Origin: Candidatus Thorarchaeota archaeon
GTDB taxonomy: Archaea; Asgardarchaeota; Thorarchaeia; Thorarchaeales; Thorarchaeaceae
Length of the DNA stretch: 64,000 bases
Assembly (NCBI GenBank): GCA_048884965.1
Contig: JBHLQH010000006.1
Location: 32,001 to 96,000, forward strand
Reading direction: 5' to 3'
Shown piece by piece: positions 49,339 through 64,000 of this stretch. Below the pieces are notes generated by a model, which saw only the letters and a program-made list of their open reading frames with translations, ran no database searches and was not told the origin of the DNA. Each line of letters starts with the position of its first letter. Position 1 is the first letter of the stretch. The translations under genes and the position numbers were made by a program.

Positions 49339-50532
49339 GTGCAAGCGAAATATGATGTAGTAGTTGTCGGTGCAGGTCCAGCAGGCAGTGTTGCCGCTCA
49401 GAAGGTGGCATCAAGTGGATACAAGACCCTGCTTCTTGATCGCCGCCGAGAAATTGGTGTACCTGTCCAATGTGGAGAATATCTACCTTCGATTCGAGAG
49501 ATGCATGAGATGTTCCCAAAATGCGAGCGGCTACAGAAGTTAGGAAGGATTCCTCGGAGCGTTGTAACAAACAAGACAACTGAGATGCGCCTTTATTCTC
49601 CAAGACTCCATGAGTACGTTTTTCCTCTCGAATCTCGTGTCATTGACCGTGCTCTATTTGACAAGCATCTCGCTACCAAGGCACAAGATGCAGGAGCATA
49701 TCTGAGCACAAACTCGAGGGTGTTAGAGAAGTTCCGTAAAAATAGACTCAAGGTTCGAACCTCAAAAGGAATCGAAGAGGTATCGGGGAAGGTAATCATC
49801 GGTGCCGATGGTCCTCGTTCTACCATCGCACAGTATCTTGGATTTTCCTACAGAAATACGATGAAGGATATCAGTCAATCACTACAATATGTGATTGGAG
49901 ATATTCCTATTGCAATGAAGGAGCCTATGATGTTCTTTGGACATAAGGTAGCGCCTGGTGGTTATGCATGGATCATTCCAAAGACTGATCGTGTTGTCAA
50001 TGTTGGCTTTGGCCTTCGAAACTCCTTCATGCGCCCAGGTACTACTCTGGTGTCATACCTTGACAATCTCATCAGCAATAAGGGGATATTTGGAGGAGCA
50101 TTGAAAGAAGGAAGGATTTTGTCTAGAGTCGGAGCAAGTATCCCAGTAGGTGGTCCTTTGAAACGGACCTACAATGAGAATACCATTTTGATTGGCGATG
50201 CAGCAGGGCATGTCATGGCGTCTAATGGTGGCGGTATCCCTACAGCTCTTGCAGGCGGCTCAATTGCAGGAGAAATAGTGGCTCAACATCTCGAGAATGG
50301 CCTAAGTCTTTCAGCATACGAAACACTCTGGAAACGCGAGTTTGGCACTCAACTATACTCAGCGCTTGCAACTCTGCGGATAGCAGATGTGATGATGAGG
50401 GATGACACTCTGACAGAGATTGCCATGCGTATTTCTGGAGCAAGATTTCTTGAGGATGTCATAAAATGCAGGGTTCCATCGCCGCTATCTTTTGGAACTC
50501 CTTTGTTAGCGTCACTGATGCAGCTGCTTTGA
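49339..50532 (+). CDS. Geranylgeranyl reductase family FAD oxidoreductase
   Basis: VVGAGPAG, PVQCGE, IDRALFD, GADG, GYAWIIP and GDAAG..GGGI motifs. Confidence 0.9.
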   Translation: MQAKYDVVVVGAGPAGSVAAQKVASSGYKTLLLDRRREIGVPVQCGEYLPSIREMHEMFPKCERLQKLGRIPRSVVTNKTTEMRLYSPRLHEYVFPLESRVIDRALFDKHLATKAQDAGAYLSTNSRVLEKFRKNRLKVRTSKGIEEVSGKVIIGADGPRSTIAQYLGFSYRNTMKDISQSLQYVIGDIPIAMKEPMMFFGHKVAPGGYAWIIPKTDRVVNVGFGLRNSFMRPGTTLVSYLDNLISNKGIFGGALKEGRILSRVGASIPVGGPLKRTYNENTILIGDAAGHVMASNGGGIPTALAGGSIAGEIVAQHLENGLSLSAYETLWKREFGTQLYSALATLRIADVMMRDDTLTEIAMRISGARFLEDVIKCRVPSPLSFGTPLLASLMQLL

Positions 50533-51730: not shown

Positions 51731-52798
51731 TCAATGAAGTCGCTGAAGCACGAAGTCCGCGATTCTTTCAAGCAATGTTGCAGTTACAAAGTATTGACCT
51801 ACCAACGCGCTCTTTGCCTTGGTCACATACTCCTTTGTTAATTCAATTGCCGTTGATATCGCGTCTGTCTGCTTGATGAGGATAAGCGCTTCAGAAACAT
51901 CTCCTTCAGACAGTGCCTGCAAGCAACTCTCTCTTTCTTTCATTGAAGAGGCTTCAAGAGCATGTACCAGAGGATATGTACACCTCTTCGACAACAGATC
52001 ACTATGGACTGCTTTGCCTGCAATCTCAGTCGAGGAAATGATATTCAAGATATCATCTCGGATCTGAAAGGCAAAGCCCAAGTTCTCGCCAAATATCCCT
52101 AACAGCTTAATTTGATCGTCAGTCCCTTCGCCTATTGTAGCTCCCATAGTTGCAGCAGCTTTGATGAAAGACACAGTCTTTTTGTTTACCATATCGAGAT
52201 AGTTATCCTTGGTCATCACTTCTGGATTGTCTGCTTGCATGAGCATGTCAGCAGCTTCGCCCTCACACATGCGAATACCTCCTTCTGCTATCTGTACCAT
52301 AAGGTCCGCAGTCGCATATTTTCCAATCATCTTCACCGCTTGTGCGACAAGTAGGTCTCCAGCTAGTATTGCCATTTTGTGACCGAACTTCTCATGAGCG
52401 GATTCCACACCTCGTCTTAACGCATCTTCATCTATCACATCATCATGAATTAGGCTTGCAGTCTGTGCGAATTCTGTCGCAACTGCGTATGGAAGGGCTT
52501 TTTCAATATCTCCTCCAACGGCCTCGCAACAAAGGACTACTAAGAGTGATCGTAGTCTCTTACCTCCTGCCTTCAGAAGATGCTTTGCAGTATCATAAAG
52601 AATCTTTGGCTCTCCATCAGTTCCAAGGTATGATTCAATTTCTTGATTGATTCTCTCAAGTCTTCTTTTCACTTTCTCATCCTGAAGTAGGTCGTTAAGA
52701 AAAGTCACTTCCCCATTCTGAATTGTGCTTTCTGGGAATAGACCATATGTATCTGCATCAGCGATAGCGTCTTTCTCGTTCAACACTTCATCCTTCAA
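51731..52798 (-). CDS. trans-polyprenyl diphosphate synthase (probably long-chain)
   Basis: GGKRLR, FARM ASLIHDDVIDED..RRG, GD, KT, SARM FQIRDD. Ala at position -5 of FARM. Confidence 0.92.
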   Translation of the reverse strand: MKDEVLNEKDAIADADTYGLFPESTIQNGEVTFLNDLLQDEKVKRRLERINQEIESYLGTDGEPKILYDTAKHLLKAGGKRLRSLLVVLCCEAVGGDIEKALPYAVATEFAQTASLIHDDVIDEDALRRGVESAHEKFGHKMAILAGDLLVAQAVKMIGKYATADLMVQIAEGGIRMCEGEAADMLMQADNPEVMTKDNYLDMVNKKTVSFIKAAATMGATIGEGTDDQIKLLGIFGENLGFAFQIRDDILNIISSTEIAGKAVHSDLLSKRCTYPLVHALEASSMKERESCLQALSEGDVSEALILIKQTDAISTAIELTKEYVTKAKSALVGQYFVTATLLERIADFVLQRLH

Positions 52799-52929: not shown

Positions 52930-53964
52930 ATGAATAGTGAAGAGAGAGAAGTTAGCAAGCTCAAAGCGTATTTCTTGGAACTACGTGCACCTTTTCTTAC
53001 GGCATCAATTTCACCTGTGTTACTTGGGACGGCAATAGCTTGGGCATTGACAGGTATCTTTCTAATTGATGTGTTTCTCCTGACATTGATCGCAGGCGTA
53101 TGCCTTCACATTGGTGCAAATGTATCAAATGACTACTTCGATCACACCACAGATAATACGGGCTCAGACGACATTAACACGGAGTTCGTTCGGCCCTTTA
53201 CAGGTGGAAGCAGGATGATACAGTTGGGGTATCTCTCACCTAGGGAGGTCTTGATTGAAGCATTCGTTTTCTTCGGTATTGCAGGAGCTATTGGTGTCTA
53301 CCTTGCGTTTACACGAGGATTCCTGATTTTGGTTCTTGGAATCATAGGTGCTGGCTCCGGATTCTTCTATACCGCCCCACCTTTCAGATTTGTAAAGAGG
53401 GGTATTGGAGAAGTCTTCATAGGTCTGAATTTTGGAGTTCTCATGACTTTTGGTTCATACTATGTTCAGGCATTGGATATTGCTTTGGAACCCATTCTTG
53501 CATCGGTGCCCACTGCACTTCTTATTGCAGCTGTCCTGTATATCAATGAGTTTCCTGATTTTATTGCAGATCGGGACTCTGGCAAAAGAACCATTGTTGT
53601 AAGACTTGGACGGGCTAGGGCCGCTAAAGGATATGCATTGATCATCGCCATTACTTTTTCATGGATAGTTATTTGTGTGCTTATGCAACTTATTTCATAT
53701 GAGTCCCTTCTTGCTCTTACACTTCTACCCATTGGATATGTTGGGGTGCGTACTGCCCTAAAAGAATATGAAACGCCTAATCGGATGGTCCCAGCAAATG
53801 CTGCGACCGTGTTACTACACCTCTTGATAACGTTGTATCTCACGTCTGCATACATCTTGAAGGGATTCATGGTGGATTTTCTCATACTCATTGTTGCTGG
53901 AGTCATCATGCTACTAATCTGCTTCACCCAATACAGGACACTTATTCGCCCGCCTCCAGCTTAG
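52930..53964 (+). CDS. menA: MenA-like 1,4-dihydroxy-2-naphthoate polyprenyltransferase (UbiA superfamily)
   Basis: LRAPFL, NDYFD....GSD, GGSR, YTAPPF..K.RG.GE and INEFPD..AD..SGKRT motifs. Confidence 0.85.
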   Translation: MNSEEREVSKLKAYFLELRAPFLTASISPVLLGTAIAWALTGIFLIDVFLLTLIAGVCLHIGANVSNDYFDHTTDNTGSDDINTEFVRPFTGGSRMIQLGYLSPREVLIEAFVFFGIAGAIGVYLAFTRGFLILVLGIIGAGSGFFYTAPPFRFVKRGIGEVFIGLNFGVLMTFGSYYVQALDIALEPILASVPTALLIAAVLYINEFPDFIADRDSGKRTIVVRLGRARAAKGYALIIAITFSWIVICVLMQLISYESLLALTLLPIGYVGVRTALKEYETPNRMVPANAATVLLHLLITLYLTSAYILKGFMVDFLILIVAGVIMLLICFTQYRTLIRPPPA

Positions 53965-54430
53965 AGGACGACTTTTTTGGGCTCATCCATTTTTGAAACT
54001 TGATGCCTTTCCAATAGTGGATGATCTTTGGAACTACTTCAATGGCGACTCTTGAACCCATGGGAAATCCATATCCCAAAAAATCAAGATATTTGCTTAG
54101 ATATCTGTTTAATATAATATCTCCCATTTCGGGTATGCTAATCACCCTAGCCTTCCCTCTGAGAAGAACGCCTCTATTGCCTGCAGGAGAGTCAGGGTCT
54201 CTTTCATCAACGGTTATAGCTATGTTCGGGTTCGTCTTTATGTTCTTTAGCTTCTTGGTCTTCTCATTGGTGATAAGGTAGACCTTCTCTTCCTTCTCAT
54301 CCCAGAGATAGAACATGGTTGTGATATGCGGTTGACAACCTGGTTCTGCTGAAGAAAGATATGCGAAGAAGCCTTCATTCAAAATCCTATGTACTTCATC
54401 GGGGATATTGGGATGCAATGAATGACTCAT
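53942..54430 (-). CDS. Pyridoxamine 5'-phosphate oxidase-like (PPOX, flavin/F420-binding split barrel) protein
   Basis: PHITTMFY, TKKLKNIKTNPNIAITVD and GVLLRGKA motifs. Confidence 0.85.
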   Translation of the reverse strand: MSHSLHPNIPDEVHRILNEGFFAYLSSAEPGCQPHITTMFYLWDEKEEKVYLITNEKTKKLKNIKTNPNIAITVDERDPDSPAGNRGVLLRGKARVISIPEMGDIILNRYLSKYLDFLGYGFPMGSRVAIEVVPKIIHYWKGIKFQKWMSPKKSSSKLEAGE

Positions 54431-54437
54431 CTTTCTA

Positions 54438-55694
54438 TCACACCCTAAGTGATGTTGGACGGGCTTCACGCCAATAGGTGACGCTCTGAGGTTCCAATCT
54501 CACAAGAACTCTTGAAATCAATGGTTTGCTCTGCCATGCAAGAGGTAGATTCTGTGATTCTTCTTTGTAATATTTCGTATACTTGGGGTATTTTCGTGTG
54601 AACATTGAACGTACTCGTAGCATCGATAAACCATAGAGAAACATCCTAAATACACCAATAGGAGAAATCTCTCCGAGGATGGTTCCAGTTCCTTGCATCA
54701 ATAATGTTCTGTTGTTCATCACATTCTTTCTATCTCGCATGTCGACAAGAACTGCCATCCTATTATTTCTCCTCAGATATCGGTATTTCGCAGACTTCAC
54801 ACTGGTAGCAAAGTAAAGATTCCTTCCGTCATAAACGAAGATGACTGGAGTAGTATGAGGATCTGTTTTTGTACACACGGATGCATACGCGAACTTCTCA
54901 TTGTATAGTATGCTTTCAACATCGGGTGGAAACCATGGAATAGTTTCCATTGCGAGGAAACTAATGACGGATAAGAGGAGAACCCCTCCAAGGAATGCGA
55001 TGATTCCAAGAGTCAATAAAGGAGAGGATGTGGCGATTGGTAATAGTAGTACAGCTGATGCCACCCACAGCAGATTGACCCAATCAATTGACTTCAAAGT
55101 TTGCAATTCTGAATATGCAGTATACTCAAGACCACGTCTTCCTCTTGCTGCTCTGGCCAGACTGATGGAACGCTTGGCTGCAAAGGAAGTCGTTAGGAAT
55201 GAAAGCCACAAACGATATGCGATATCCCAAGTTAGGATTAGGATGAGAAGCACAAGGATTGGGTTTCCATAACCTATGCCAAGAAATCTTGCCAAGATAG
55301 AAGGTTCAAGTATGAATAGATAGAATGAAACTCCAATGAATGCTGCAACACTTCCAGCCAGCTCATATTTCCTATCACATAGGAGTCGATTTTTGTATGA
55401 AGCTAGAACATCAAGCTCTTCTTCGTTGGTGGGGTTCTTTAATCTGCGCAGCCAAGGAATTACGAACAGGCAGCCAGATGACCAAACTACTGTATAGATG
55501 ATGGCAAGTGTGCCAAACACAACTGAATCCAGTGGCATCTGAAAATAGAGGAATGCCAGAATACCGACAGTTTCCACTAGGAGAAGCTGCGCAAGGACCT
55601 GAAAATCTGGACGTAGCCATTTGAAGGGTGGAACGTGCTCCACGATTTCTTCATAGAGCCACTTCTTTTCTTCAAGATCCACATTTTGACACAT
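54438..55694 (-). CDS. Membrane protein fused to C-terminal PPOX-like domain
   Basis: About 6 TMs in the first ~250 aa, then PHTTPVIF..SAKYRYLRRNNRMAVLVD..MQGTG. Confidence 0.75.
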   Translation of the reverse strand: MCQNVDLEEKKWLYEEIVEHVPPFKWLRPDFQVLAQLLLVETVGILAFLYFQMPLDSVVFGTLAIIYTVVWSSGCLFVIPWLRRLKNPTNEEELDVLASYKNRLLCDRKYELAGSVAAFIGVSFYLFILEPSILARFLGIGYGNPILVLLILILTWDIAYRLWLSFLTTSFAAKRSISLARAARGRRGLEYTAYSELQTLKSIDWVNLLWVASAVLLLPIATSSPLLTLGIIAFLGGVLLLSVISFLAMETIPWFPPDVESILYNEKFAYASVCTKTDPHTTPVIFVYDGRNLYFATSVKSAKYRYLRRNNRMAVLVDMRDRKNVMNNRTLLMQGTGTILGEISPIGVFRMFLYGLSMLRVRSMFTRKYPKYTKYYKEESQNLPLAWQSKPLISRVLVRLEPQSVTYWREARPTSLRV

Positions 55695-55743
55695 TAGCAG
55701 ACATATTCCGGATATGCCTTATGTGAGTTGCGAAATGGAGGAA

Positions 55744-56967
55744 TTATTCATAGATTTCTTCGAGACCATCCCATTCGAAACCCATTGCTTGAGCTACTAA
55801 TACGACCAAGTCCTTGGATAACTTGTTTGACCCTGCACCAGGTAATTGATTGTGCATGAAGTCGACACAAGAGGGACAATGTGACGCTACAACATTCGCA
55901 TTCGTAGCCTCGATGTCCTTGACCTTCAGATCGTTGATCTTAACGGCAAAGTCATTGTCTATTGCTCGGAGAACACCGCCTGAACCACAGCAATAGCTGT
56001 TTCCCTTGTTGTGAGGCAACTCCTCAAATACAACTCCAGGTAGATGTTCGAGAACCTTTCTAGGCTCCTCATAGAAGCCTGCGTTTCGACCTGCATCACA
56101 ACCATCATGATAGGTGACTGTCAAACCAAGGGGAGTGGTGAATTCCAACTTGTTGGCATCAAGGAGTTCCAACAGATACTCGGCACCATATACGATATCA
56201 AAGTCGTGCTCGATACCTAGGAACTCATGATACTCATGTGCCCACATCTTGTAGCATCCGGGGCAATTGGTAACAATCCTCTCAACGCCAAGTTCCTTGT
56301 ATTTCTCGATATTGTGAAGCGCGAATTTCCTTGCTGTTTCAAAATCTCCAGTCATGATCATCGGAGCACCGCAGCACCATTCTTCTTCACCAAGTAGAGT
56401 GAAGTCGACTCCTGCTTTGTCATAGATGAGAGTAGATGCTATTGTTCCCTGTATTGATACACCTTTGAAGGAGGAAGCACAGCCCATGAACAATGCTGTC
56501 TTTGCCTCTTTTCCCTGTAGGTCAAGTACCATGTCCTCGTCAGGGTGCCAGTATGACCAACCCTCAATCCTATCCATCTGAGATTGGCCCTGAATATTGT
56601 TAGTCTTCAGGAGAGTGTCCTTTGCCATCTGCAGCTCCTCTGGCCACATTCCTCTCTTTAGGAAATCATGACGCAGAAGCTGGTAGATCTTGACAAATGG
56701 GATGTCTACTTGACAGATCTCCTCACAACCTCCACATAGAGTACAACCAAAGATGGCGTCCCTGAGACCTTCTAGTCCTTGAGATGGTTTGAGTCGTCCC
56801 TGGATTAGATTCCTGGCAATGACCATCTTGCCCTTGCCAGAGTAACTATCACGCCGCTTGACCTTGTATGTCGGACAAGCTCCATTGCCTACTTGGCAGA
56901 AACTGCATTGAGCGCATGTATAAGGGATATCATGGAGTCCATGTGCTTCGAGTGTTGGGAATCGCAT
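55744..56967 (-). CDS. GlcF/HdrD-like Fe-S protein (2x[4Fe-4S] + 2 CCG domains)
   Basis: CAQCSFC...CP and CTLCGGCEEIC ferredoxin motifs. GC..WCCG..CPGC and HDGC..YCCG..CPSC CCG domains. Confidence 0.92.
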   Translation of the reverse strand: MRFPTLEAHGLHDIPYTCAQCSFCQVGNGACPTYKVKRRDSYSGKGKMVIARNLIQGRLKPSQGLEGLRDAIFGCTLCGGCEEICQVDIPFVKIYQLLRHDFLKRGMWPEELQMAKDTLLKTNNIQGQSQMDRIEGWSYWHPDEDMVLDLQGKEAKTALFMGCASSFKGVSIQGTIASTLIYDKAGVDFTLLGEEEWCCGAPMIMTGDFETARKFALHNIEKYKELGVERIVTNCPGCYKMWAHEYHEFLGIEHDFDIVYGAEYLLELLDANKLEFTTPLGLTVTYHDGCDAGRNAGFYEEPRKVLEHLPGVVFEELPHNKGNSYCCGSGGVLRAIDNDFAVKINDLKVKDIEATNANVVASHCPSCVDFMHNQLPGAGSNKLSKDLVVLVAQAMGFEWDGLEEIYE

Positions 56968-57194
56968 GTTCGTTACCTCGTCATTCCTGTTGAAATGTCT
57001 ATCGAAAGCATCTTACTGCGTTACACTTCGGAATACAATACTCCACAAATACCTTTCCACACCTTTCATCACTTACATCATGTAAACAAAAAATCGTCCG
57101 AGAGGAAAAAAACTCTCTCTCGCTAGGTTTTTATGTTAGCGAGGTTTCATTCGCTGCGTAAGGGTATCCGGACCAGTATACGGAGACGCCTCTC

Positions 57195-59135
57195 ATGGGA
57201 CTTAAGAAACGACAAATCGAGAAGCTTGCGGAACTCTTCGGAGATCGGCTCATTACTGAGAAGCACGAGTTAGTCATATTCAACACTGATGTTGGCGCCT
57301 TGCCAAAGCAAGTAGGATATATGATGAACAACAAACCTGATGCGGCAGTACAACCATTGACTCCGGAGGAGATTCAAGCTCTCTACGAAATTGCCAATAA
57401 AGAGAAGATACCTCTCGTTCCACGAGGAGCTGGGACAAGTGGGTATGGTGGTGCCATTCCACGAAAAGGTGGAATCATTGTAGACATTCGCAGGATGAAC
57501 AACATCATCGAGGTGGACAAGGAGAACCTGTCTGTTCTGGTAGAACCTGGACTCTCGTGGTCCAACCTACAGTTCGAGTTGAACCGTCAAGACTTGGATC
57601 TGCGATGCTATCCCTCATCAGGATTGGCTGCAACGATTGGAGGTTGGGTCGCTCAGGGTGGCGATGGTATTGGGTCTCTAAAGTATGGCAACATCAATGA
57701 GAATGTCCTTGAGTTTGAGGTCGTCCTACCAGATGGCAAGATAATCAAGAGTCGCGATACAGATCTCTTCTGTGACACTGAGGGAATACTGGGAATTATC
57801 ACCAAGGTCCGTTTGAAGATCAAGCCCCTTATGCCGCTAAAGGTCATCGTAGCAAGCTTCCCTGAGAACTACCAGATGGTTCTCGCAATGGAGAAGATGC
57901 TTGAGGATGGCCCATTACCTTATACTATCAAGTTTGAAGAATCAAAGTACACAGATCTCAAGAAGAAGGTCTGGGATGCTGATGAGCCCTTCCCGTTCCC
58001 CGTGCACCATGGAACAGTCATGGTCGCATACGAGGGAACAGATGAGGAGATTGAGGAAGGATTCGAGGTAGTTCGACATGTGACTGCAGAGTACAATGGT
58101 GTCGTCTACGATGAGCACGTAGCAGCGCACGAATGGCATGATCGATTCTATCCTATGCGTGTAAAGAAGGCTGGTCCTACCCTAGTTGTCGGACAGGCAT
58201 TCGCACCCCTTGAGAACCTTGAGGCTATTCTCTCTGATTTCCAGTTCGAGCAAGCCTCTGCCCAAGCGGGTATCGATGGATATGTGACCTCAAGATCAGG
58301 GGTAACTATCATGGGCTACTTCCTTGAAGACGAACGCAGAATGTTCTTCATGCTCTCCTGGTCACAAAGCTTTGTCATATTCAAGATCGCTCAACGACAT
58401 GGCGGACATCCCCACGGAATAGGGATCTGGTTCGCCAACTATGCGCCACAATACTTTGGCACACGACGACTGGCAAAGATTAGGGCTGCCAAGCTTCAGT
58501 ATGATAAGAATGAGATCTCGAATCCTGGGAAGATATTCGCATACTGGCTTCCCTTCATTCTTCGTATTGGCAAGTATTTCATGTGGATCGGTTATGACCT
58601 CTTCCGGAATGGATGGGGACGAATCGCTCCAGTGCTTTTGAAATGGCTACAGAATGTACCTCCTCTGAAGTGGATGCTCCGCTGGGGTCGTGGCCATAGT
58701 CCATGGCCTGTACAGTTCGGTCTTGGATGTTGTATGATGGACGGTGCGGCAGCTGTTGCCTCACGTTGGGACATTGAACGATTTGGAATGCTTCCACTCT
58801 TCGGTCCACGTCAGGCTGATGTGCTGTGGGTATCAGGGTCTCTGACCAAGAAGATGGCTCCACGACTTCGCAGAATCTATGAGCAGATGCCTGAGCCCAA
58901 GTATGTCATTAGCTTCGGTCAATGCGCCGCAAGTGGTGGCATGTTCTGGGATGGCTATTCTCTGATGACCCCGCCAGACAAGGTAGTGCCCGTTGATGTG
59001 TATCTGCCCGGTTGCCCACCAAAACCTGTAGATTTCGTACGAGCGCATTTGATATTACAAAACAAGATTCGCGCCGGTACAACGCACTGGCAGAGGAAGT
59101 ACGAGAATCAAGATGCAATGGGGATGATGCAATGA
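57195..59135 (+). CDS. Fusion of GlcD/D-lactate-dehydrogenase-like FAD oxidoreductase and NuoB (complex I N2 subunit)
   Basis: N-terminal PRGAGTS..GG, VEPG, ATIGG, LKYG, TEGILGIITK, HGIG, NPGK. C-terminal GLGCC, PRQADVL, GSLTKKMAP, QMPEPKYVI, GQCAASGG, PVDVYLPGCPP. Single uninterrupted ORF. Confidence 0.93.
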   Translation: MGLKKRQIEKLAELFGDRLITEKHELVIFNTDVGALPKQVGYMMNNKPDAAVQPLTPEEIQALYEIANKEKIPLVPRGAGTSGYGGAIPRKGGIIVDIRRMNNIIEVDKENLSVLVEPGLSWSNLQFELNRQDLDLRCYPSSGLAATIGGWVAQGGDGIGSLKYGNINENVLEFEVVLPDGKIIKSRDTDLFCDTEGILGIITKVRLKIKPLMPLKVIVASFPENYQMVLAMEKMLEDGPLPYTIKFEESKYTDLKKKVWDADEPFPFPVHHGTVMVAYEGTDEEIEEGFEVVRHVTAEYNGVVYDEHVAAHEWHDRFYPMRVKKAGPTLVVGQAFAPLENLEAILSDFQFEQASAQAGIDGYVTSRSGVTIMGYFLEDERRMFFMLSWSQSFVIFKIAQRHGGHPHGIGIWFANYAPQYFGTRRLAKIRAAKLQYDKNEISNPGKIFAYWLPFILRIGKYFMWIGYDLFRNGWGRIAPVLLKWLQNVPPLKWMLRWGRGHSPWPVQFGLGCCMMDGAAAVASRWDIERFGMLPLFGPRQADVLWVSGSLTKKMAPRLRRIYEQMPEPKYVISFGQCAASGGMFWDGYSLMTPPDKVVPVDVYLPGCPPKPVDFVRAHLILQNKIRAGTTHWQRKYENQDAMGMMQ

Positions 59136-59692
59136 GTCGACGGTTGAACGAGGACGCAGACAGGTACTGCATGTTCTGGCTTGGTATCATGATGATGACT
59201 GCCTACTATGCAGAGTTCATCATCAAGCCCACAGTTGGGTTGATTACCTTGGGATTTGGCAACCTCGTACCTCTCCTTGGTGGTCCACTAATCATTGTTG
59301 CCGCATTCTTTGGGTATTTCGCCCCTGAGGCAAGGAGTAGGAGAGAAAAAATGCGAAAGAATACATCTTTGGCTGTAGCGATTTTCGTTGCTCTCATGTA
59401 CATGATTTTCTCATTTGTTGTATATCCTTGGGAGATGGCTGATGTTGTGTGGTATTCATTTTGGGGTATTGGCTCTGCTATCGTAACCGCAGGTGGAGCC
59501 GCGATGATCCGAATAACCACCGCTGATGAAGCATACACACCTGGTATCATGGATGTCAGTAAGCTGCATTACGGACCTCCACCCGCAGAACCTGAGGTCG
59601 AGATCGAAGCTATAACTGCAGAATCTTCTGACGAATCCAAAGAAAAATCTGAAGAGGAAATATCAGTAGCTCCAACTGAAGCTACTGAGTGA
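59132..59692 (+). CDS. Hypothetical 4-TM membrane protein with acidic tail, translationally coupled to the fusion gene
   Basis: ATGA overlap at 59132-59135. Hydrophobic segments and E/S-rich C-terminus. Confidence 0.7.
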   Translation: MSRRLNEDADRYCMFWLGIMMMTAYYAEFIIKPTVGLITLGFGNLVPLLGGPLIIVAAFFGYFAPEARSRREKMRKNTSLAVAIFVALMYMIFSFVVYPWEMADVVWYSFWGIGSAIVTAGGAAMIRITTADEAYTPGIMDVSKLHYGPPPAEPEVEIEAITAESSDESKEKSEEEISVAPTEATE

Positions 59693-59699
59693 TTCCCTC

Positions 59700-60065
59700 T
59701 CACTCTAGCAGCCAATTGAATGCTGCGAATGCCAACAACAGTCCAAATGCTATCCATGCGAACAAGATTATTCCTGGAAAGACATCATACATGGAAATAT
59801 CCAAGAAGAAATGAACACCGCCAGTGACGCCACAGATGGCAGTCATAGCAACTCTCGATGTGCGCGTCTTAGTATAGACAAAGAGAAATGCCGATATCAG
59901 TAAAACGATACCACTCATGAATAGGATGAATTGGTAGTATGTACTGAAATGGAATGCCTCAATTGTTGCAGGTGTGGTAAGTATATACCACAAATAGGCT
60001 CCGACAAGACTCATACCTATCAGGAGCGCAAGATAATAGAAGAATCCTCCTTCTTCTCGACTCAA
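59700..60065 (-). CDS. Hypothetical 4-TM membrane protein
   Basis: Four hydrophobic segments. AGGAG upstream. Confidence 0.65.
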   Translation of the reverse strand: MSREEGGFFYYLALLIGMSLVGAYLWYILTTPATIEAFHFSTYYQFILFMSGIVLLISAFLFVYTKTRTSRVAMTAICGVTGGVHFFLDISMYDVFPGIILFAWIAFGLLLAFAAFNWLLE

Positions 60066-60186
60066 TGTTATCGGTTCTCCTTTAGTTGTACAACCGACTT
60101 TCTAGGTAGCAACTACAATATTTAACTTCTCCGAGATTCTTGCGAAGCGTTTTTAATACGGCTGTACATTCCGCCCTTCTCAAGTT

Positions 60187-60391
60187 ACAGGTTTACGATA
60201 CACGAAGAATCCAGAGTGTCACTACGTAAACAAGCGTGATGTTTATCACTTGGTTGTATCGTCCTGTTGCTAAGCATTGATGTCAAATGAACACCACGAG
60301 AATGATTGAAGATGGTTCAGGAACAACACTTTTACCTTACCATTTGTCAGGATTGCGTCAGTCTTGTCGAAGCTGACAGACTTCTCGGGTG
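60187..60391 (+). promoter_or_regulatory. Structured 5' leader candidate upstream of nuoA
   Basis: TATA-like TTTTAATA near 60151 and several complementary blocks (see findings). Confidence 0.35.
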
Positions 60392-60418
60392 TCGTGAAAC
60401 AGAGGACGGTATCAGAGC

Positions 60419-60853
60419 ATGAGGTTATTCGTGGACTTCGTACCGGTATTAGTATGGGCACTACTTGCCATTGTGCTTGTAGTTGTGATGCTTTTGGCTT
60501 CATGGGTCTTGCGACCGCATGTTCTCCAGAATTCGGAGAAGCTATCATCATATGAGTGTGGTGAGGATCCAATTGGAGTAGCAAGGATATCTTACCCGTA
60601 CAACTACCTGGTATACACCATTCTATTTGTTGTGATTGATGTGATGGGTGCATTCCTATGGTTGCTGGCGGCATCTACACTAAGACTGGAAGCGATGATA
60701 GTTTGGCAGACTCTGATATTTGTCTTGATCATCATGGGCGGAATAGGTTTCGCGATGAAGCTGTTGCCACAAGCATCTCTCGATGGCAAAGAGACACTCG
60801 AGTTGTATCGTGAAACCAAGAAAGCTCGGGAGGCGACTCAATCCCATCATTAA
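60419..60853 (+). CDS. nuoA: Complex I-like subunit A
   Basis: EKLSSYECGEDP loop, 3 TMs. Confidence 0.92.
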   Translation: MRLFVDFVPVLVWALLAIVLVVVMLLASWVLRPHVLQNSEKLSSYECGEDPIGVARISYPYNYLVYTILFVVIDVMGAFLWLLAASTLRLEAMIVWQTLIFVLIIMGGIGFAMKLLPQASLDGKETLELYRETKKAREATQSHH

Positions 60854-60860
60854 GAGGTGA

Positions 60861-61502
60861 ATGATCATGCAAGAATTAGATCCATTCCTCCAACTCTTTG
60901 AGCAAGTAGAATTCTTACTCATTGCAGGCATAGTAATTGTTCTTGGCTACCTTGCACTAGAACACAAGGACATAGTCTACGCTGCTTTCTTCTTTGGTTT
61001 CATGGCAAGTATTGTTGCGGGTTTCTTCTTACTACTTGACGCACCTTACATTGCCGGTATGCAGATTGCTGTTTATACAGGTGGCATCAGTGCATTGATT
61101 ATCTTTGGCGTTCTGCTACTTCCTCGTGCGCAAGACACAAGCCTAGAGATTTTCGCATCTCCCAGTAAACGACGAATCGGTATGCTTGCAGCTGCATTCG
61201 TGATGGCATTCTCTGGTGGCCTTGCGCTTGCATTCCCATGGCCTTCTGTGATACCTGAAGGTATACCGGAGTTCTCTCAGAGCCTACAAGGTCTAGCAGA
61301 ATGGCTTTGGCAAGAACATGGTCTCTATGTGCAGATTATTGCATTGATTATCCTTACTACCCTCGTTGGTTCACTTGCCCTCCTTCAGATGGATAAGGGA
61401 GAGGCATTGAAGGGAGTCACCGCTGAATTCGGGATTGAAGCAGAGCCGGAGCCTGAGACCGATGAATACTCTGATGAAGAAATAAAGGAGGCTTCGAACT
61501 AA
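60861..61502 (+). CDS. nuoJ: Complex I-like subunit J
   Basis: LLDAPYIAGMQIAVYTGGI motif, 5 TMs. Confidence 0.9.
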   Translation: MIMQELDPFLQLFEQVEFLLIAGIVIVLGYLALEHKDIVYAAFFFGFMASIVAGFFLLLDAPYIAGMQIAVYTGGISALIIFGVLLLPRAQDTSLEIFASPSKRRIGMLAAAFVMAFSGGLALAFPWPSVIPEGIPEFSQSLQGLAEWLWQEHGLYVQIIALIILTTLVGSLALLQMDKGEALKGVTAEFGIEAEPEPETDEYSDEEIKEASN

Positions 61503-61813
61503 TGGTCCCGCTAACATGGTATCTTGTCGTCGCCTTCATCCTGATTGGTCTTGGAGCGTATGGGATGATGGTCAAGCGGAACCTCATCCGAATTCTGATA
61601 GCTGCTGAGATTATGGGCAATGGCGTTAATGTTGCGCTCGTTTCGTTGGCTGTCTATGGCGGGTACTTCTCATACACCCCACAGGGTCTCATTATGTTGA
61701 TTATCTCGGTAGCGGCTGCTCATACCGCTTTAGCCCTTGTTCTAATGCTAATGTACAACCGTCGCTATGGTACGGTTGACTTAGGAACACCACTACAACA
61801 GGAGGTGTCCTAG
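61502..61813 (+). CDS. nuoK: Complex I-like subunit K
   Basis: LGAYG..KRNLIRILIAAEIM, VAAA motifs. Confidence 0.9.
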   Translation: MVPLTWYLVVAFILIGLGAYGMMVKRNLIRILIAAEIMGNGVNVALVSLAVYGGYFSYTPQGLIMLIISVAAAHTALALVLMLMYNRRYGTVDLGTPLQQEVS

Positions 61814-61814
61814 A

Positions 61815-62324
61815 ATGGGTCCGGAAGATCTAGTTCGGAAGTTCAATTCGAAGTTTCCTGAGATAGAAGCCAATGTCCAGGACAGTACTCATGTCGAGTT
61901 CACTGTGCCAAAAGGTAAGATACGTGATCTAGTAAATCTTGTAGATGAGACGTTTCCTATGGTTCTTCCTGAAACAGTCTTTGGTGTTGATCTTGGTGAT
62001 GATAAATATCAGATCAACTATATGTTCTGGTCTAGAGATAGTCGTTTGATAACTCAACTAAGAGTCAATCTGGATGGTCCAACACCATCTGTTGATTCTG
62101 TAAGCGATATCTTCCCAGCATTCGAATGGCATGAGCGTGAAACACATGAGATGTTTGGGATTATGTTCAATGGTCATCCTGACCTTCGACCACTTCTTTT
62201 ACCTGATGAGTTGGTTGGTCAGTACCCACTCCGTAAAAGTTTCCAAACAGATCGAAGTCGAGAAGACGAATCAGGTCTCGTGGTCAAAAAGCCACGCCCT
62301 GATGCTGGAGGTGGCAGTGAATGA
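61815..62324 (+). CDS. nuoC: Complex I-like subunit C
   Basis: WHERETHEMFGIMFNGHPDLRPLLLP..YPLRK motif. Confidence 0.93.
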   Translation: MGPEDLVRKFNSKFPEIEANVQDSTHVEFTVPKGKIRDLVNLVDETFPMVLPETVFGVDLGDDKYQINYMFWSRDSRLITQLRVNLDGPTPSVDSVSDIFPAFEWHERETHEMFGIMFNGHPDLRPLLLPDELVGQYPLRKSFQTDRSREDESGLVVKKPRPDAGGGSE

Positions 62325-63457
62325 GCCCTGACATTGTTGATGAATCAGTAGATATCTGGTTTGGGCCACAGCATGTATCCGCACATGGATGGGCTGCAAA
62401 ACTCAAGCTAGTTGGCGACTTTATCGTAGAATGCGATCCACATGCAGGATATTTCCACAGGTCTGCAGAGAAGTGTTTGGAGTATCGAAACTTCCGCCAA
62501 GGCTCACTGATCCTTGAGCGACTGTGTATGCTTGAAGCATTCCTTTCCGAATATCCCTACCTTAGTGCAGTCGAGCAAATTGCTGGTCTTGAAGTCCCTG
62601 AACGTGCTAAGGTCATCCGGACCATCATGATGGAGGCGAGCAGGATTCACTCCTTCCAGTTCTGGTGGGGTCAGTTCTCAGCTGAGATGGGATTCTTTGC
62701 TATGACCCTTTGGCCATGGGTGGACCGAGAATACTTCCTGGATGCCTTTGAGGAACTGACTGGTTCCCGTCACGCTCCAAGCTTTGGGACTCCTGGCGGC
62801 GTCAGATTTGACTTTACTGAGAAATCTGTGAAGAAATTGGAGAAAGCAATTGATGTGTTGGAGAGCAATCTGCCAAAGTTCGAGGACATGCTTCTGGGAA
62901 GTCCAATCTTTAGGATGCGAACAGAAGGAGTCGCCCGTTATAGTGGCAAACAGGCGCTTCGATGGGGATTCTCAGGGCCAAACATTAAGGCTTGCGGAAT
63001 ACCCATGGATTTGAGGAAGGATTTCCCTGATCCAAATCTCGCTTACAATATGGCTGATTGGGAAGTTCCTATTGTGGAGAATCCTGAGTATCCCGGTGAA
63101 AGCGATGCATTCGACAGGATGCTCCAGAGATTCAAAGAGGTCAAGACCTCTGTCAGCATCATTAAGCAGCTGTTGCCCCAGGTACCTGAGGGCGAGATCG
63201 TAGATCCAAAGGCTAGAGCAAAAGCCAATCGCCTCCCTGAAGGAGAAGCCTATGGCCGAGTTGAGGGAACTCGTGGAATCATTTCTCTCTGGTTGAAGAC
63301 ACTGGATAAAGCACAGACCCCCTATCGGGCGAAGATACGCGGACCGTGCCTACAATCATACTATTCACTCAAGCATCTGGTACCTAGTGCCAGATTCGCT
63401 GATTTCATTGTAATATTTGGAAGCCTTGATCCATATCCAGGATGGTGGGATAGATGA
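62321..63457 (+). CDS. nuoD: Complex I/MBS-like subunit D (no NiFe CxxC pairs)
   Basis: GPQHVSAHG, GYFHRSAEK, VPERA, PGGV, GEAYGRVE..RG, PYRAKIRGP and SLDPYPGWWDR motifs. Confidence 0.9.
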   Translation: MSPDIVDESVDIWFGPQHVSAHGWAAKLKLVGDFIVECDPHAGYFHRSAEKCLEYRNFRQGSLILERLCMLEAFLSEYPYLSAVEQIAGLEVPERAKVIRTIMMEASRIHSFQFWWGQFSAEMGFFAMTLWPWVDREYFLDAFEELTGSRHAPSFGTPGGVRFDFTEKSVKKLEKAIDVLESNLPKFEDMLLGSPIFRMRTEGVARYSGKQALRWGFSGPNIKACGIPMDLRKDFPDPNLAYNMADWEVPIVENPEYPGESDAFDRMLQRFKEVKTSVSIIKQLLPQVPEGEIVDPKARAKANRLPEGEAYGRVEGTRGIISLWLKTLDKAQTPYRAKIRGPCLQSYYSLKHLVPSARFADFIVIFGSLDPYPGWWDR

Positions 63458-64000
63458 TAGGAGGTGCAGTGACATTGCAATTCGAATGGTTCTTTGACTG
63501 GCTTGCTGGAATTCCTACGTGGCTTTTCGATGTTATATATTGGATAATTGACATCATAATGGGAATCATCTTTTGGATAGAGGATCTAGTCAGATTTCTC
63601 TGGATTCTCATTGTCGACAACTTCTTCTTCCTACTCAAGGCAGTCCTATTCCCAGGATTGATTTTCGTTGTAATGGGACTCATCTATTTCGTTTGGTTTA
63701 CACGAAAACTCTGGGGTCGCATTCAGATGCGAAGAGGTCCAATGCACTTGGGTAAGTATGGTGGCGTGCAACTCTTTGCTGATGCTATCAAGCTCATCTC
63801 AAAGGAAACCATTATCCCCACCAACGCTCGAAGATGGATGTACCGCTTCCTTCCTTCGCTACTACTCATAGTCGTACTCATTCCATTTGCATTCATTCCA
63901 TGGGATACGACATGGTTCATCGCTGACCTTTCAGTAAGCCTTGTACTGGTGTTCGCATTCCTTGCTGCAGTGCCTGTCATTGCTCTTCTAGCGGGTTGGA
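63454..64000 (+). CDS. nuoH: Complex I-like subunit H, runs off window
   Basis: Not in ORF track. Manual translation gives ...WFTRKLWGRIQMRRGPMHLGKYGGVQLFADAIKLISKETIIP... ATG overlaps the nuoD stop (GTG 63469 is an alternative start). Confidence 0.9.
   Translation, partial: MIGGAVTLQFEWFFDWLAGIPTWLFDVIYWIIDIIMGIIFWIEDLVRFLWILIVDNFFFLLKAVLFPGLIFVVMGLIYFVWFTRKLWGRIQMRRGPMHLGKYGGVQLFADAIKLISKETIIPTNARRWMYRFLPSLLLIVVLIPFAFIPWDTTWFIADLSVSLVLVFAFLAAVPVIALLAGW

Follow-up and report, generated by a model that had tools for sequence, protein, structure and literature searches.

What is a pump of the complex I type doing with a flavoprotein attached to the one subunit that holds its iron-sulfur cluster N2, and does the attachment serve to bring electrons in, to take them out, or simply to hold an enzyme in place? 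This question is raised by a stretch of 64,000 nucleotides (hereafter the window, to which all plain coordinates refer) of a contig from Candidatus Thorarchaeota archaeon (JBHLQH010000006.1, positions 32,001 to 96,000 of the forward strand; assembly GCA_048884965.1), in which a single gene joins a flavoprotein to NuoB, the N2 subunit. Complex I-type pumps are known to take electrons via NuoEFG, via FpoF, or from ferredoxin at NuoI, and the covalent attachment of a redox enzyme to the N2 subunit is a design unlike these entry routes. In genera g1-g12 of one family of Thor-type Asgard archaea, the pump's only NuoB forms the C-terminal part of a flavoprotein whose fold is that of LDHD, LctD and AGPS. 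With regard to function, the reading that is tentatively favoured here, with a confidence that falls a little short of even, is that the fusion anchors a second redox enzyme to a pump driven by ferredoxin, at the end where the pump meets its carrier, as the predicted structures and the conserved gene order suggest.

One gene for a flavoprotein and NuoB

The fusion is encoded on the forward strand by one open reading frame of 646 codons that contains no internal stops, and which can be divided into three parts as follows.

57195..59135, + strand: fusion gene (LDHD/LctD-fold flavoprotein, conserved amphipathic tail and NuoB), 646 amino acids, one open reading frame
57195..58535, + strand: flavin domain, residues 1-447 (Pfam, AlphaFold2 model, Foldseek)
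58536..58664, + strand: amphipathic tail rich in Trp, Arg, Lys and Leu, about residues 448-490 (conservation, hydrophobic moment, AlphaFold2)
58665..59135, + strand: NuoB domain, residues 491-646 (NCBIfam, N2 ligands, Nqo6 alignment)

An earlier note on this DNA had described the frame as a flavoenzyme followed by an amphipathic linker and a NuoB with all four N2 ligands, a description that is confirmed by Pfam, by NCBIfam and by 44 fused homologues. Three Pfam domains are recognised, FAD_binding_4 over residues 48-185 with an E value of 4e-38, FAD-oxidase_C over 216-447 (1e-10) and Oxidored_q6 over 513-617 (7e-25). Residues 493-627 match the NuoB family model nuoB_fam (TIGR01957, NCBIfam) with 173.9 bits against a cut-off of 142.7, and the fusion also scores 182.1 bits with NF005012, for which the cut-off is 116. 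The four N2 ligands, C512, C513, C577 and C607, are invariant in the 44 homologues and align with the cysteines of Thermus thermophilus Nqo6, which is the closest solved structure to the NuoB part (153 bits) and of which residues 24-161 are aligned, fusion residue 491 falling at Nqo6 residue 24. Stand-alone NuoB proteins have about 150-250 residues, a size that does not fit a protein of 646 residues in which the NuoB part starts only at about residue 491.

The tail that lies between the two parts (residues 448-492) is amphipathic, with a hydrophobic moment of 0.4-0.57 and no transmembrane window, and AlphaFold2 (AF2) predicts helices within it at residues 451-472 and 474-486. Among the fused homologues the tail is more highly conserved (85% identity) than the flavin domain (77%), and an equivalent C-terminal tail is found at the end of the unfused relatives P0058 and P0059.

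The joining of the two parts is genuine and did not arise in assembly. Contigs built in independent assemblies of sediment runs from one study cross positions 57558-59125 and 58029-58807 without indels, and the continuity of the frame through the linker region around 58500-58700, on which the reading of a single gene depended, is thereby upheld, as it is by the recurrence of the fusion in other genomes. Only in G333 do the two parts lie in different frames, and this split gene was set aside as an assembly frameshift rather than a true separation, since nuoD is also split on the same contig, which marks that assembly as error-prone. A methionine does occur near the start of the NuoB part, but its position is not conserved in the 44-sequence consensus, which makes a separate NuoB product from an internal start unlikely.

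Distribution of the fusion

How widespread is this architecture? A survey of 400 genomes of the phylum together with all 86 genomes of the family found the fusion in a single frame (614-719 amino acids) in 52 species-level genomes, all of which belong to genera g1-g12 of one family. The NuoD type of the present pump (at least 69% identity) has the same genus range, being found in g1-g12 and in none of g13-g16. In the latter genera the NuoB genes are exclusively stand-alone and sit in distinct B-C-D-H-I clusters, the products of which are about 30% identical to the present subunits. These genes, along with second copies of NuoB in some of the fused genomes, were considered as split forms of the fusion and ruled out because they belong to those different clusters. 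A pre-fusion state was sought in the unfused nuoB of G397, which has no adjoining flavoprotein gene on its 3.9-kb contig, and P0179 (533 amino acids), a candidate for a further NuoB fusion, was rejected on finding that it consists of two Oxidored_q6 stretches and has no flavin domain.

When 1.84 billion representative proteins were searched exhaustively with HMMER, the full architecture was recovered in one cluster at 50% identity, all other matches having one part only. The near-identical proteins bear the source name 'NADH-quinone oxidoreductase subunit NuoB [Candidatus Thorarchaeota archaeon]', which agrees with the Asgard host that had been proposed from the sequence, and the public annotation of the fusion is simply NuoB. 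The suggestion that the fusion is new to the literature has also held up, in that no paper on a flavoprotein-NuoB fusion was found by full-text searching, from whose reach most subscription journals lie outside, and in that it is described neither in the preprint on Asgard respiration (10.1101/2024.07.04.601786) nor in PMC6737245.

The complex I-like pump

The pump to which the fusion belongs is encoded downstream of it, mostly within the window.

59132..59692, + strand: membrane protein, 186 amino acids, no family match, its ATG overlapping the TGA of the fusion (ATGA)
60419..60853, + strand: nuoA (Pfam)
60861..61502, + strand: nuoJ (Pfam)
61502..61813, + strand: nuoK (Pfam)
61815..62324, + strand: nuoC (Pfam)
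62321..63457, + strand: nuoD, non-canonical type (Pfam, match in the Protein Data Bank (PDB), alignment)
63454..64000, + strand: 5' part of nuoH, the gene continuing past the window end (Pfam)

The fusion gene stands outside the nuo operon, with nuoA about 1.3 kb downstream of it, and the earlier observation that nuoA-J-K-C-D-H follow without a nuoB is borne out. Past the window end come the rest of nuoH, nuoI with its two 4Fe-4S motifs, and then four antiporter-like (Proton_antipo_M) genes, M'-L-M-N (L007:5036-11962, counted in bases beyond the window end on the same contig), of which NuoL has 767 amino acids. The complete order 3' of the fusion is therefore A-J-K-C-D-H-I-M'-L-M-N, with no nuoB among these genes. 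No other NuoB-family match above cut-off occurs in any of the 99 contigs of the genome, which is 96% complete, in agreement with the proposed role of the fusion as the only NuoB of the complex, while five other Oxidored_q6 matches are frames of 272-327 amino acids with extra cysteine clusters and are read, from these clusters, as probable hydrogenase-type small subunits. NuoF (PF01512) was not found in this 96%-complete genome; NuoE, NuoG and FpoF were not separately searched. A sister clade (L044, L046) has the order A / J-K-C-D-H-I-M'-L-M-N, also with four antiporter-like genes, and in this clade NuoB is unfused.

What is it about NuoD that sets this pump apart? The closest solved match of NuoD is MbsL of the Pyrococcus membrane-bound sulfane reductase (MBS), at 209.9 bits compared with 188.3 bits for Nqo4. 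Two residues of Nqo4, His38 and Tyr87, are the ligands of the quinone head group, and of these NuoD retains an equivalent of His38 and has Met at the position of Tyr87, within a motif RLCMLE in which the D-Y of the canonical DRxDY has become C-M. The sister clade, at about 50% identity, has S-M or S-L at this point, and the canonical DRxDY is confined to homologues with identities of at most 38%. The cysteine of RLCMLE aligns with the cysteine of RICVPE in MbsL, which is one of two former NiFe ligands that MBS has retained, and at the C-terminus (SLDPYPGWWDR) a Tyr stands at the position of a former NiFe cysteine.

The predicted iron-sulfur partner of the flavin domain

Next to the fusion, and transcribed away from it, is the gene for a second redox protein.

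55744..56967, - strand: HdrD/GlcF-like iron-sulfur protein, 407 amino acids, divergent to the fusion

This protein, for which Pfam gives two CCG domains and Fer4_8 (a 4Fe-4S dicluster), contains 18 invariant cysteines that fit two ferredoxin-type CxxCxxC...CP motifs and two complete CCG motifs (CXnCCGXmCxxC). Its gene adjoins the fusion in every fused genome inspected. Among PDB sequences it matches HdrB chains and 9ojn_A, and its scores with the named equivalog models are all below cut-off (TfrB 154.5 against 385, GlpC 105.3 against 278, GlcF 62.1 against 333), the name given to its homologues by JGI being heterodisulfide reductase subunit D.

A predicted complex of this CCG protein with fusion residues 1-492 gave ipSAE values of 0.89, 0.89 and 0.88, the best of three controls reaching 0.01, with a contact agreement between runs of at least 97% and a predicted local distance difference test score (pLDDT) of 90-91 for the partner; the pass mark applied to such predictions is reached by 58 of 80 solved complexes and by 2 of 110 mismatched pairs. 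In the model the FAD-binding loops of the flavin domain (residues 79-81, 142-145, 318-330 and 379-381) face the ferredoxin-like N-terminal domain of the partner (residues 13-28, 38-68 and 84-88), and the tail of the fusion is not part of the interface. This supports, though it is not proof of, binding of the CCG protein by the flavin domain. Searches of PDB sequences found no solved flavoprotein-CCG pair of a comparable kind.

The fold and the site of the flavin domain

Can the substrate of the enzyme be deduced from its family? With a deep alignment, AF2 models residues 1-492 with a pLDDT of 92.3 and a predicted template-modelling (TM) score (pTM) of 0.90, and a Foldseek search with the flavin domain finds mouse LDHD (TM 0.78-0.86, probability 1.00) as well as LctD of the Ldh-EtfAB complex and alkyl-dihydroxyacetone phosphate synthase (AGPS, also known as alkyl-DHAP synthase; TM 0.76). 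The earlier description of the domain as being of the 2-hydroxyacid-dehydrogenase type is true of the fold only. In mouse LDHD the metal- and substrate-binding triad consists of His398, His405 and Glu442, and in the alignment these residues (the two His of GHVGDGNFH and the Glu of GEHGIG) correspond to Tyr363, Thr/Ile371-372 and Pro406 of the fusion. The His-His-Glu triad is likewise absent from the unfused relatives and from flavoprotein-FeS-CCG fusions of 870-1030 amino acids, and in 47 of the 72 nearest representatives Pro takes the place of the Glu, within a motif GG(R/K/H)P(Y/H)G, Glu never being among the six commonest residues at this position. The equivalog models for known enzymes fall far below their cut-offs, with TIGR00387 (glcD) at 143.7 against 567.9, which is a quarter of the required score, and NF008408 at 95.2 against 897, and the matches in the ESM Atlas are labelled no more precisely than, for example, 'FAD linked oxidase' or 'D-lactate dehydrogenase family'. 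By its aligned residues the flavin site is not a canonical D-lactate or glycolate site, and with the triad absent and the equivalog scores so low the substrate cannot be read from the family. AGPS itself is marked by a catalytic Tyr, a His-His-His loop and the lack of an Fe-S partner; the sequence alignment to AGPS spans residues 40-255 only, and the constant Fe-S/CCG partner argues against membership of that family.

Carrier genes and relatives of the flavoprotein

On the other side of the CCG gene the window holds three genes that may serve the synthesis of a prenylated carrier, along with two split-barrel genes.

49339..50532, + strand: geranylgeranyl-reductase-family (GGR) flavoprotein (conserved neighbourhood)
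51731..52798, - strand: polyprenyl diphosphate synthase, IdsA-like (conserved neighbourhood)
52930..53964, + strand: MenA-like UbiA-family prenyltransferase (TIGR00751, 108.8 bits, cut-off 102.15)
53942..55694, - strand: two PNPOx-type split-barrel genes, 53942-54469 and 54438-55694 (the latter a DUF7530 membrane domain plus barrel), co-oriented behind the CCG gene

Linkage of the flavoprotein and CCG genes to the IdsA, MenA-like and GGR genes is seen in three Asgard lineages, namely the fused genomes, genus g14 and family f30. In g14, where the flavoprotein is unfused and a pump of the present type is absent, the order is GGR / IdsA / MenA-like - CCG - flavoprotein, and in f30 the genes for the flavoprotein, the CCG protein, an amine oxidase, the MenA-like protein, GGR and IdsA form a tight same-strand run about 2 kb downstream of nuoL-M-N. 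Family f4 has nuoN followed by two pairs of flavoprotein and CCG genes. The split-barrel genes (PNPOx/F420-type) are less constant among the fused genera, occurring in L027, L028, L029 and L036 and in none of L030-L035.

The family to which the flavoprotein belongs has also entered into other fusions. Relatives of the flavin domain are joined to FeS and CCG domains (P0073, P0127), to a membrane subunit of the NrfD/PsrC type (P0130, 867 amino acids), and, in a protein of 1391 amino acids (P0262), to three glycine-cleavage H-protein (GcvH) domains together with FeS and CCG domains, which suggests that a lipoyl dithiol/disulfide may be the substrate of the CCG part in that lineage. Other homologues of about 900 amino acids with a C-terminal flavin domain were considered as NrfD fusions; all except P0130 are tandem FAD_binding_4 proteins. 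The synteny and the family fusions point to a module that would work at the level of a membrane carrier.

At the far end of the operon, 3' of nuoN (L007:12275-18000), are genes for a multihaem cytochrome c, a 759-amino-acid protein and a cytochrome c assembly (CcsA-like) protein, and in G317 the multihaem cytochrome, the 759-amino-acid protein and the assembly gene lie directly 3' of the fusion (L033:12227-17925). Such an arrangement may point to an exit of electrons from the chain through a cytochrome. The 186-amino-acid membrane protein has an acidic tail, shows 29-56% identity across the fused genomes and is kept 3' of the fusion in nearly all of them, and a query with it gave no match in the unfused lineages inspected; it could be a lineage-specific subunit. 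Between its gene and nuoA there is a gap of about 730 bp (59693-60418) that contains short open reading frames only and which extends to several kb in L030 and L031; a scan of 55000-61000 with Rfam, gap included, gave no match.

A proposed tether between a redox enzyme and the pump

How might these pieces work together? According to the favoured reading, the flavin domain would pair with the HdrD/GlcF-like protein, its FAD-binding loops receiving the partner's ferredoxin-like domain (2x[4Fe-4S]) as in the predicted complex, and the tail, running directly into NuoB at the equivalent of Nqo6 residue 24, would keep this flavo-iron-sulfur enzyme permanently moored at the membrane surface. We take the N-terminus of NuoB to lie where the peripheral arm meets the membrane, near NuoH, NuoA and the entrance of the carrier tunnel, and since the tail is both conserved and amphipathic the enzyme would be held beside the carrier entrance. 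Electrons from ferredoxin would enter via NuoI and pass to N2, thereby driving the pump, and the moored enzyme would exchange electrons with the same prenylated membrane carrier as the pump, a carrier that may be made by the adjoining polyprenyl synthase, MenA-like prenyltransferase and GGR-type reductase. The enzyme would either supply the carrier with electrons, as a second donor that does not pump, or re-oxidise it.

A number of points weigh against this scheme. The AF2 model of the entire 646-residue fusion (pLDDT 62.6, pTM 0.57, with residues 440-541 below 50) is too poor to place the flavin domain relative to NuoB. A tether of about 45 residues, together with two proteins of 45-50 kDa, may also be long enough to touch NuoI and so provide a direct wire. 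The acceptor of the pump may not be a classical quinone, given that NuoD lacks Tyr87, and a profile search of the genome gave neither MqnA/D, MqnC nor MenB above cut-off. The flavoprotein and its HdrD-like partner might form a new electron port, for input or for output, at the N2 end of a pump that works with a novel prenylated carrier in place of a classical quinone; this we regard as possible, if somewhat unlikely.

Electron output, electron input or neither

What, then, of the alternatives in which the module is wired to the pump itself or has no part in its electron flow? In the first of these the module would serve as an outlet, comparable to that of the Fpo-like complex with HdrD, such that electrons from ferredoxin pass via NuoI through the pump to its NuoB/NuoD end and from there, directly or via a locally cycled carrier, to the HdrD-like/flavin module, which reduces a soluble disulfide or an oxo-acid. 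Both the altered NuoD site and the CCG chemistry favour such an output role and make it a serious rival, although on balance it is judged unlikely. The partner has two complete CCG motifs, as do HdrB and HdrD, and its homologues go by the name of the latter; NuoD, without the quinone tyrosine, is among solved structures most like MbsL; and the three lipoyl-carrier H-protein domains of P0262 hint at dithiol/disulfide chemistry. There is a precedent too, in that the Fpo-like complex of Methanomassiliicoccales has been proposed to work with HdrD, and pairs of HdrD and GlcD have been discussed in other archaea (PMC8407382). Against an outlet of this kind, the prenylated-carrier and multihaem cytochrome genes at the locus speak for an ordinary carrier pool with other outlets, N2 has all four of its cysteines, unlike the catalytic cluster of MBS, and the link to the pump rests on genetic linkage and on the predicted flavoprotein-CCG complex.

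The opposite direction is that in which a substrate is oxidised at the flavin and its electrons run through the HdrD-like clusters to NuoI or N2 and on to the acceptor, so that the oxidation itself drives pumping. This is essentially what the earlier note had inferred in coupling the oxidation of an organic acid directly to the membrane arm, an inference that the present analysis does not support and that is considered quite unlikely. The covalent link to the N2 subunit, the failure to find NuoF, the restriction of fusion and pump type to the same genera, and a CCG dicluster which, as predicted to dock on the flavin domain, would make a ready-made wire are all consistent with it. However, the site lacks the metal triad of the D-2-hydroxyacid dehydrogenases, NuoI is retained as the usual entry point of ferredoxin, and the attachment is at the N-terminus of NuoB, which lies far from the top of the arm. 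The energetics are also unfavourable, for with textbook midpoint potentials of about -190 mV for a lactate-type donor and about -75 mV for a menaquinone-type acceptor the yield is in the region of 22 kJ per electron pair, which is too little for the translocation of four or five ions. The relatives of the flavoprotein that are unfused and occur without this pump (g14), or that have an NrfD anchor, and the synteny at the level of the carrier also tell against a direct coupling.

Could the flavoprotein have no net redox role in the pump and be merely anchored there, as an AGPS-like enzyme, as an enzyme of prenyl-lipid or carrier biosynthesis, or as an appendage for assembly or regulation? Its fold is nearly as close to that of alkyl-DHAP synthase (TM 0.76) as to that of LDHD (0.78), its gene is tightly linked to those for a polyprenyl synthase, a UbiA-family prenyltransferase and a GGR-type reductase, and the known pathways to the menaquinone head group are missing from the genome. 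Yet the constant, and sometimes fused, partner is an electron-transfer protein with 2x[4Fe-4S] and CCG clusters that is predicted to dock at the FAD loops, and the NrfD and NuoB fusions both join the flavoprotein family to electron-transfer subunits of respiration, all of which leaves a biosynthetic or structural role improbable. The remaining explanation, namely an artefact in which a frameshift or misassembly has joined two genes or in which an internal start yields separate products, could draw on the split frames of G333 and on the methionine near the NuoB part, but is hardly credible in the face of a single frame in 52 genomes, contigs that cross the junction without indels, a nuoD that is also split in G333, a tail more conserved than the flavin domain and a methionine that is not conserved.

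Comparison with known systems

With the mooring of a second redox enzyme as the favoured reading, it can be asked how far the complex resembles those already characterised. Its NuoB part belongs with NuoB, Nqo6, PSST (NDUFS7) and NdhK in terms of family score, of the tandem Cys-Cys with two further cysteines, and of being encoded with NuoA, C, D, H, I, J, K, L, M and N; the difference lies in the N-terminus, where about 490 residues of flavoprotein and tail in the fusion replace the first 23 or so residues of Nqo6. With the complex I relatives that have no NADH module, such as cyanobacterial NDH-1 and the Fpo-like complex of Methanomassiliicoccales (the source for this comparison being PMC9723677), it shares the eleven core subunit types, the lack of a detectable NuoF and a NuoI that is available to ferredoxin. 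As has been proposed for the Fpo-like complex and HdrD, an HdrD-like protein is here genetically tied to the pump, but in this case the tie is covalent, through the flavoprotein-NuoB fusion. The complex differs further from NDH-1 and the Fpo-like complex in having a fourth antiporter-like subunit and a NuoD without Tyr87, in belonging to a host named Thorarchaeota, which is not a known methanogen lineage, and in having prenylated-carrier and multihaem cytochrome genes at the same locus.

The flavin part shares its two Pfam domains, its fold and a GlcF/HdrD-like partner, adjacent or fused, with the family that includes GlcDEF, Dld-II/YdiJ, LDHD and LctD, from which the nearest family of the fusion differs in being without the His-His-Glu metal site. 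The MBS of Pyrococcus furiosus (PDB 6U8Y) has in MbsL the closest relative of the present NuoD, with one former NiFe cysteine in common. In contrast to MBS, the NuoB part has the complex I pattern (Cys-Cys, four ligands), NuoD retains the equivalent of His38 and has Tyr in place of the second MbsL cysteine, and the membrane arm is Nuo-type (NuoA/J/K/L/M/N). A further parallel is provided by the '2M' complex I, which Chadwick et al. are said to have described in 2018 as containing a second NuoM. The four Proton_antipo_M genes in the order M'-L-M-N and the long NuoL (767 amino acids) are features in common, whereas the present pump is archaeal, has no NADH module and has its NuoB fused.

What the fusion would mean

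If these readings are correct the fusion would provide genetic proof that a module of the GlcD/HdrD type sits on such a pump, an association that until now was no more than a proposal, made for the Fpo-like complex with HdrD in methanogens and for other archaea. Thor-type Asgard archaea are usually described as fermenters. The locus would endow them with a clade-specific respiratory cluster consisting of carrier biosynthesis, a four-antiporter pump, a flavo-iron-sulfur module and a multihaem cytochrome. An MbsL-like NuoD that is without the quinone tyrosine and which has kept one former NiFe cysteine would place the enzyme between the sulfane reductases and true complex I, and in this way would bear on the evolution of complex I. 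Were the module to be a new electron port, it would constitute a new class of energy-converting oxidoreductase in the Asgard archaea, the phylum that includes the closest known relatives of the eukaryotes, and the first hard evidence that modules of the HdrD type dock on such pumps. The pieces are of a size that lends itself to expression and assay.

A minor observation concerns g16, one of the genera with stand-alone NuoB only. In four genomes of this genus (G391:C30, G392:C6, G394:C106 and G396:C141) the NuoB-family match of another, non-orthologous complex has one in-frame TAG, which could be an upstream stop that falls within the match or could reflect recoding.

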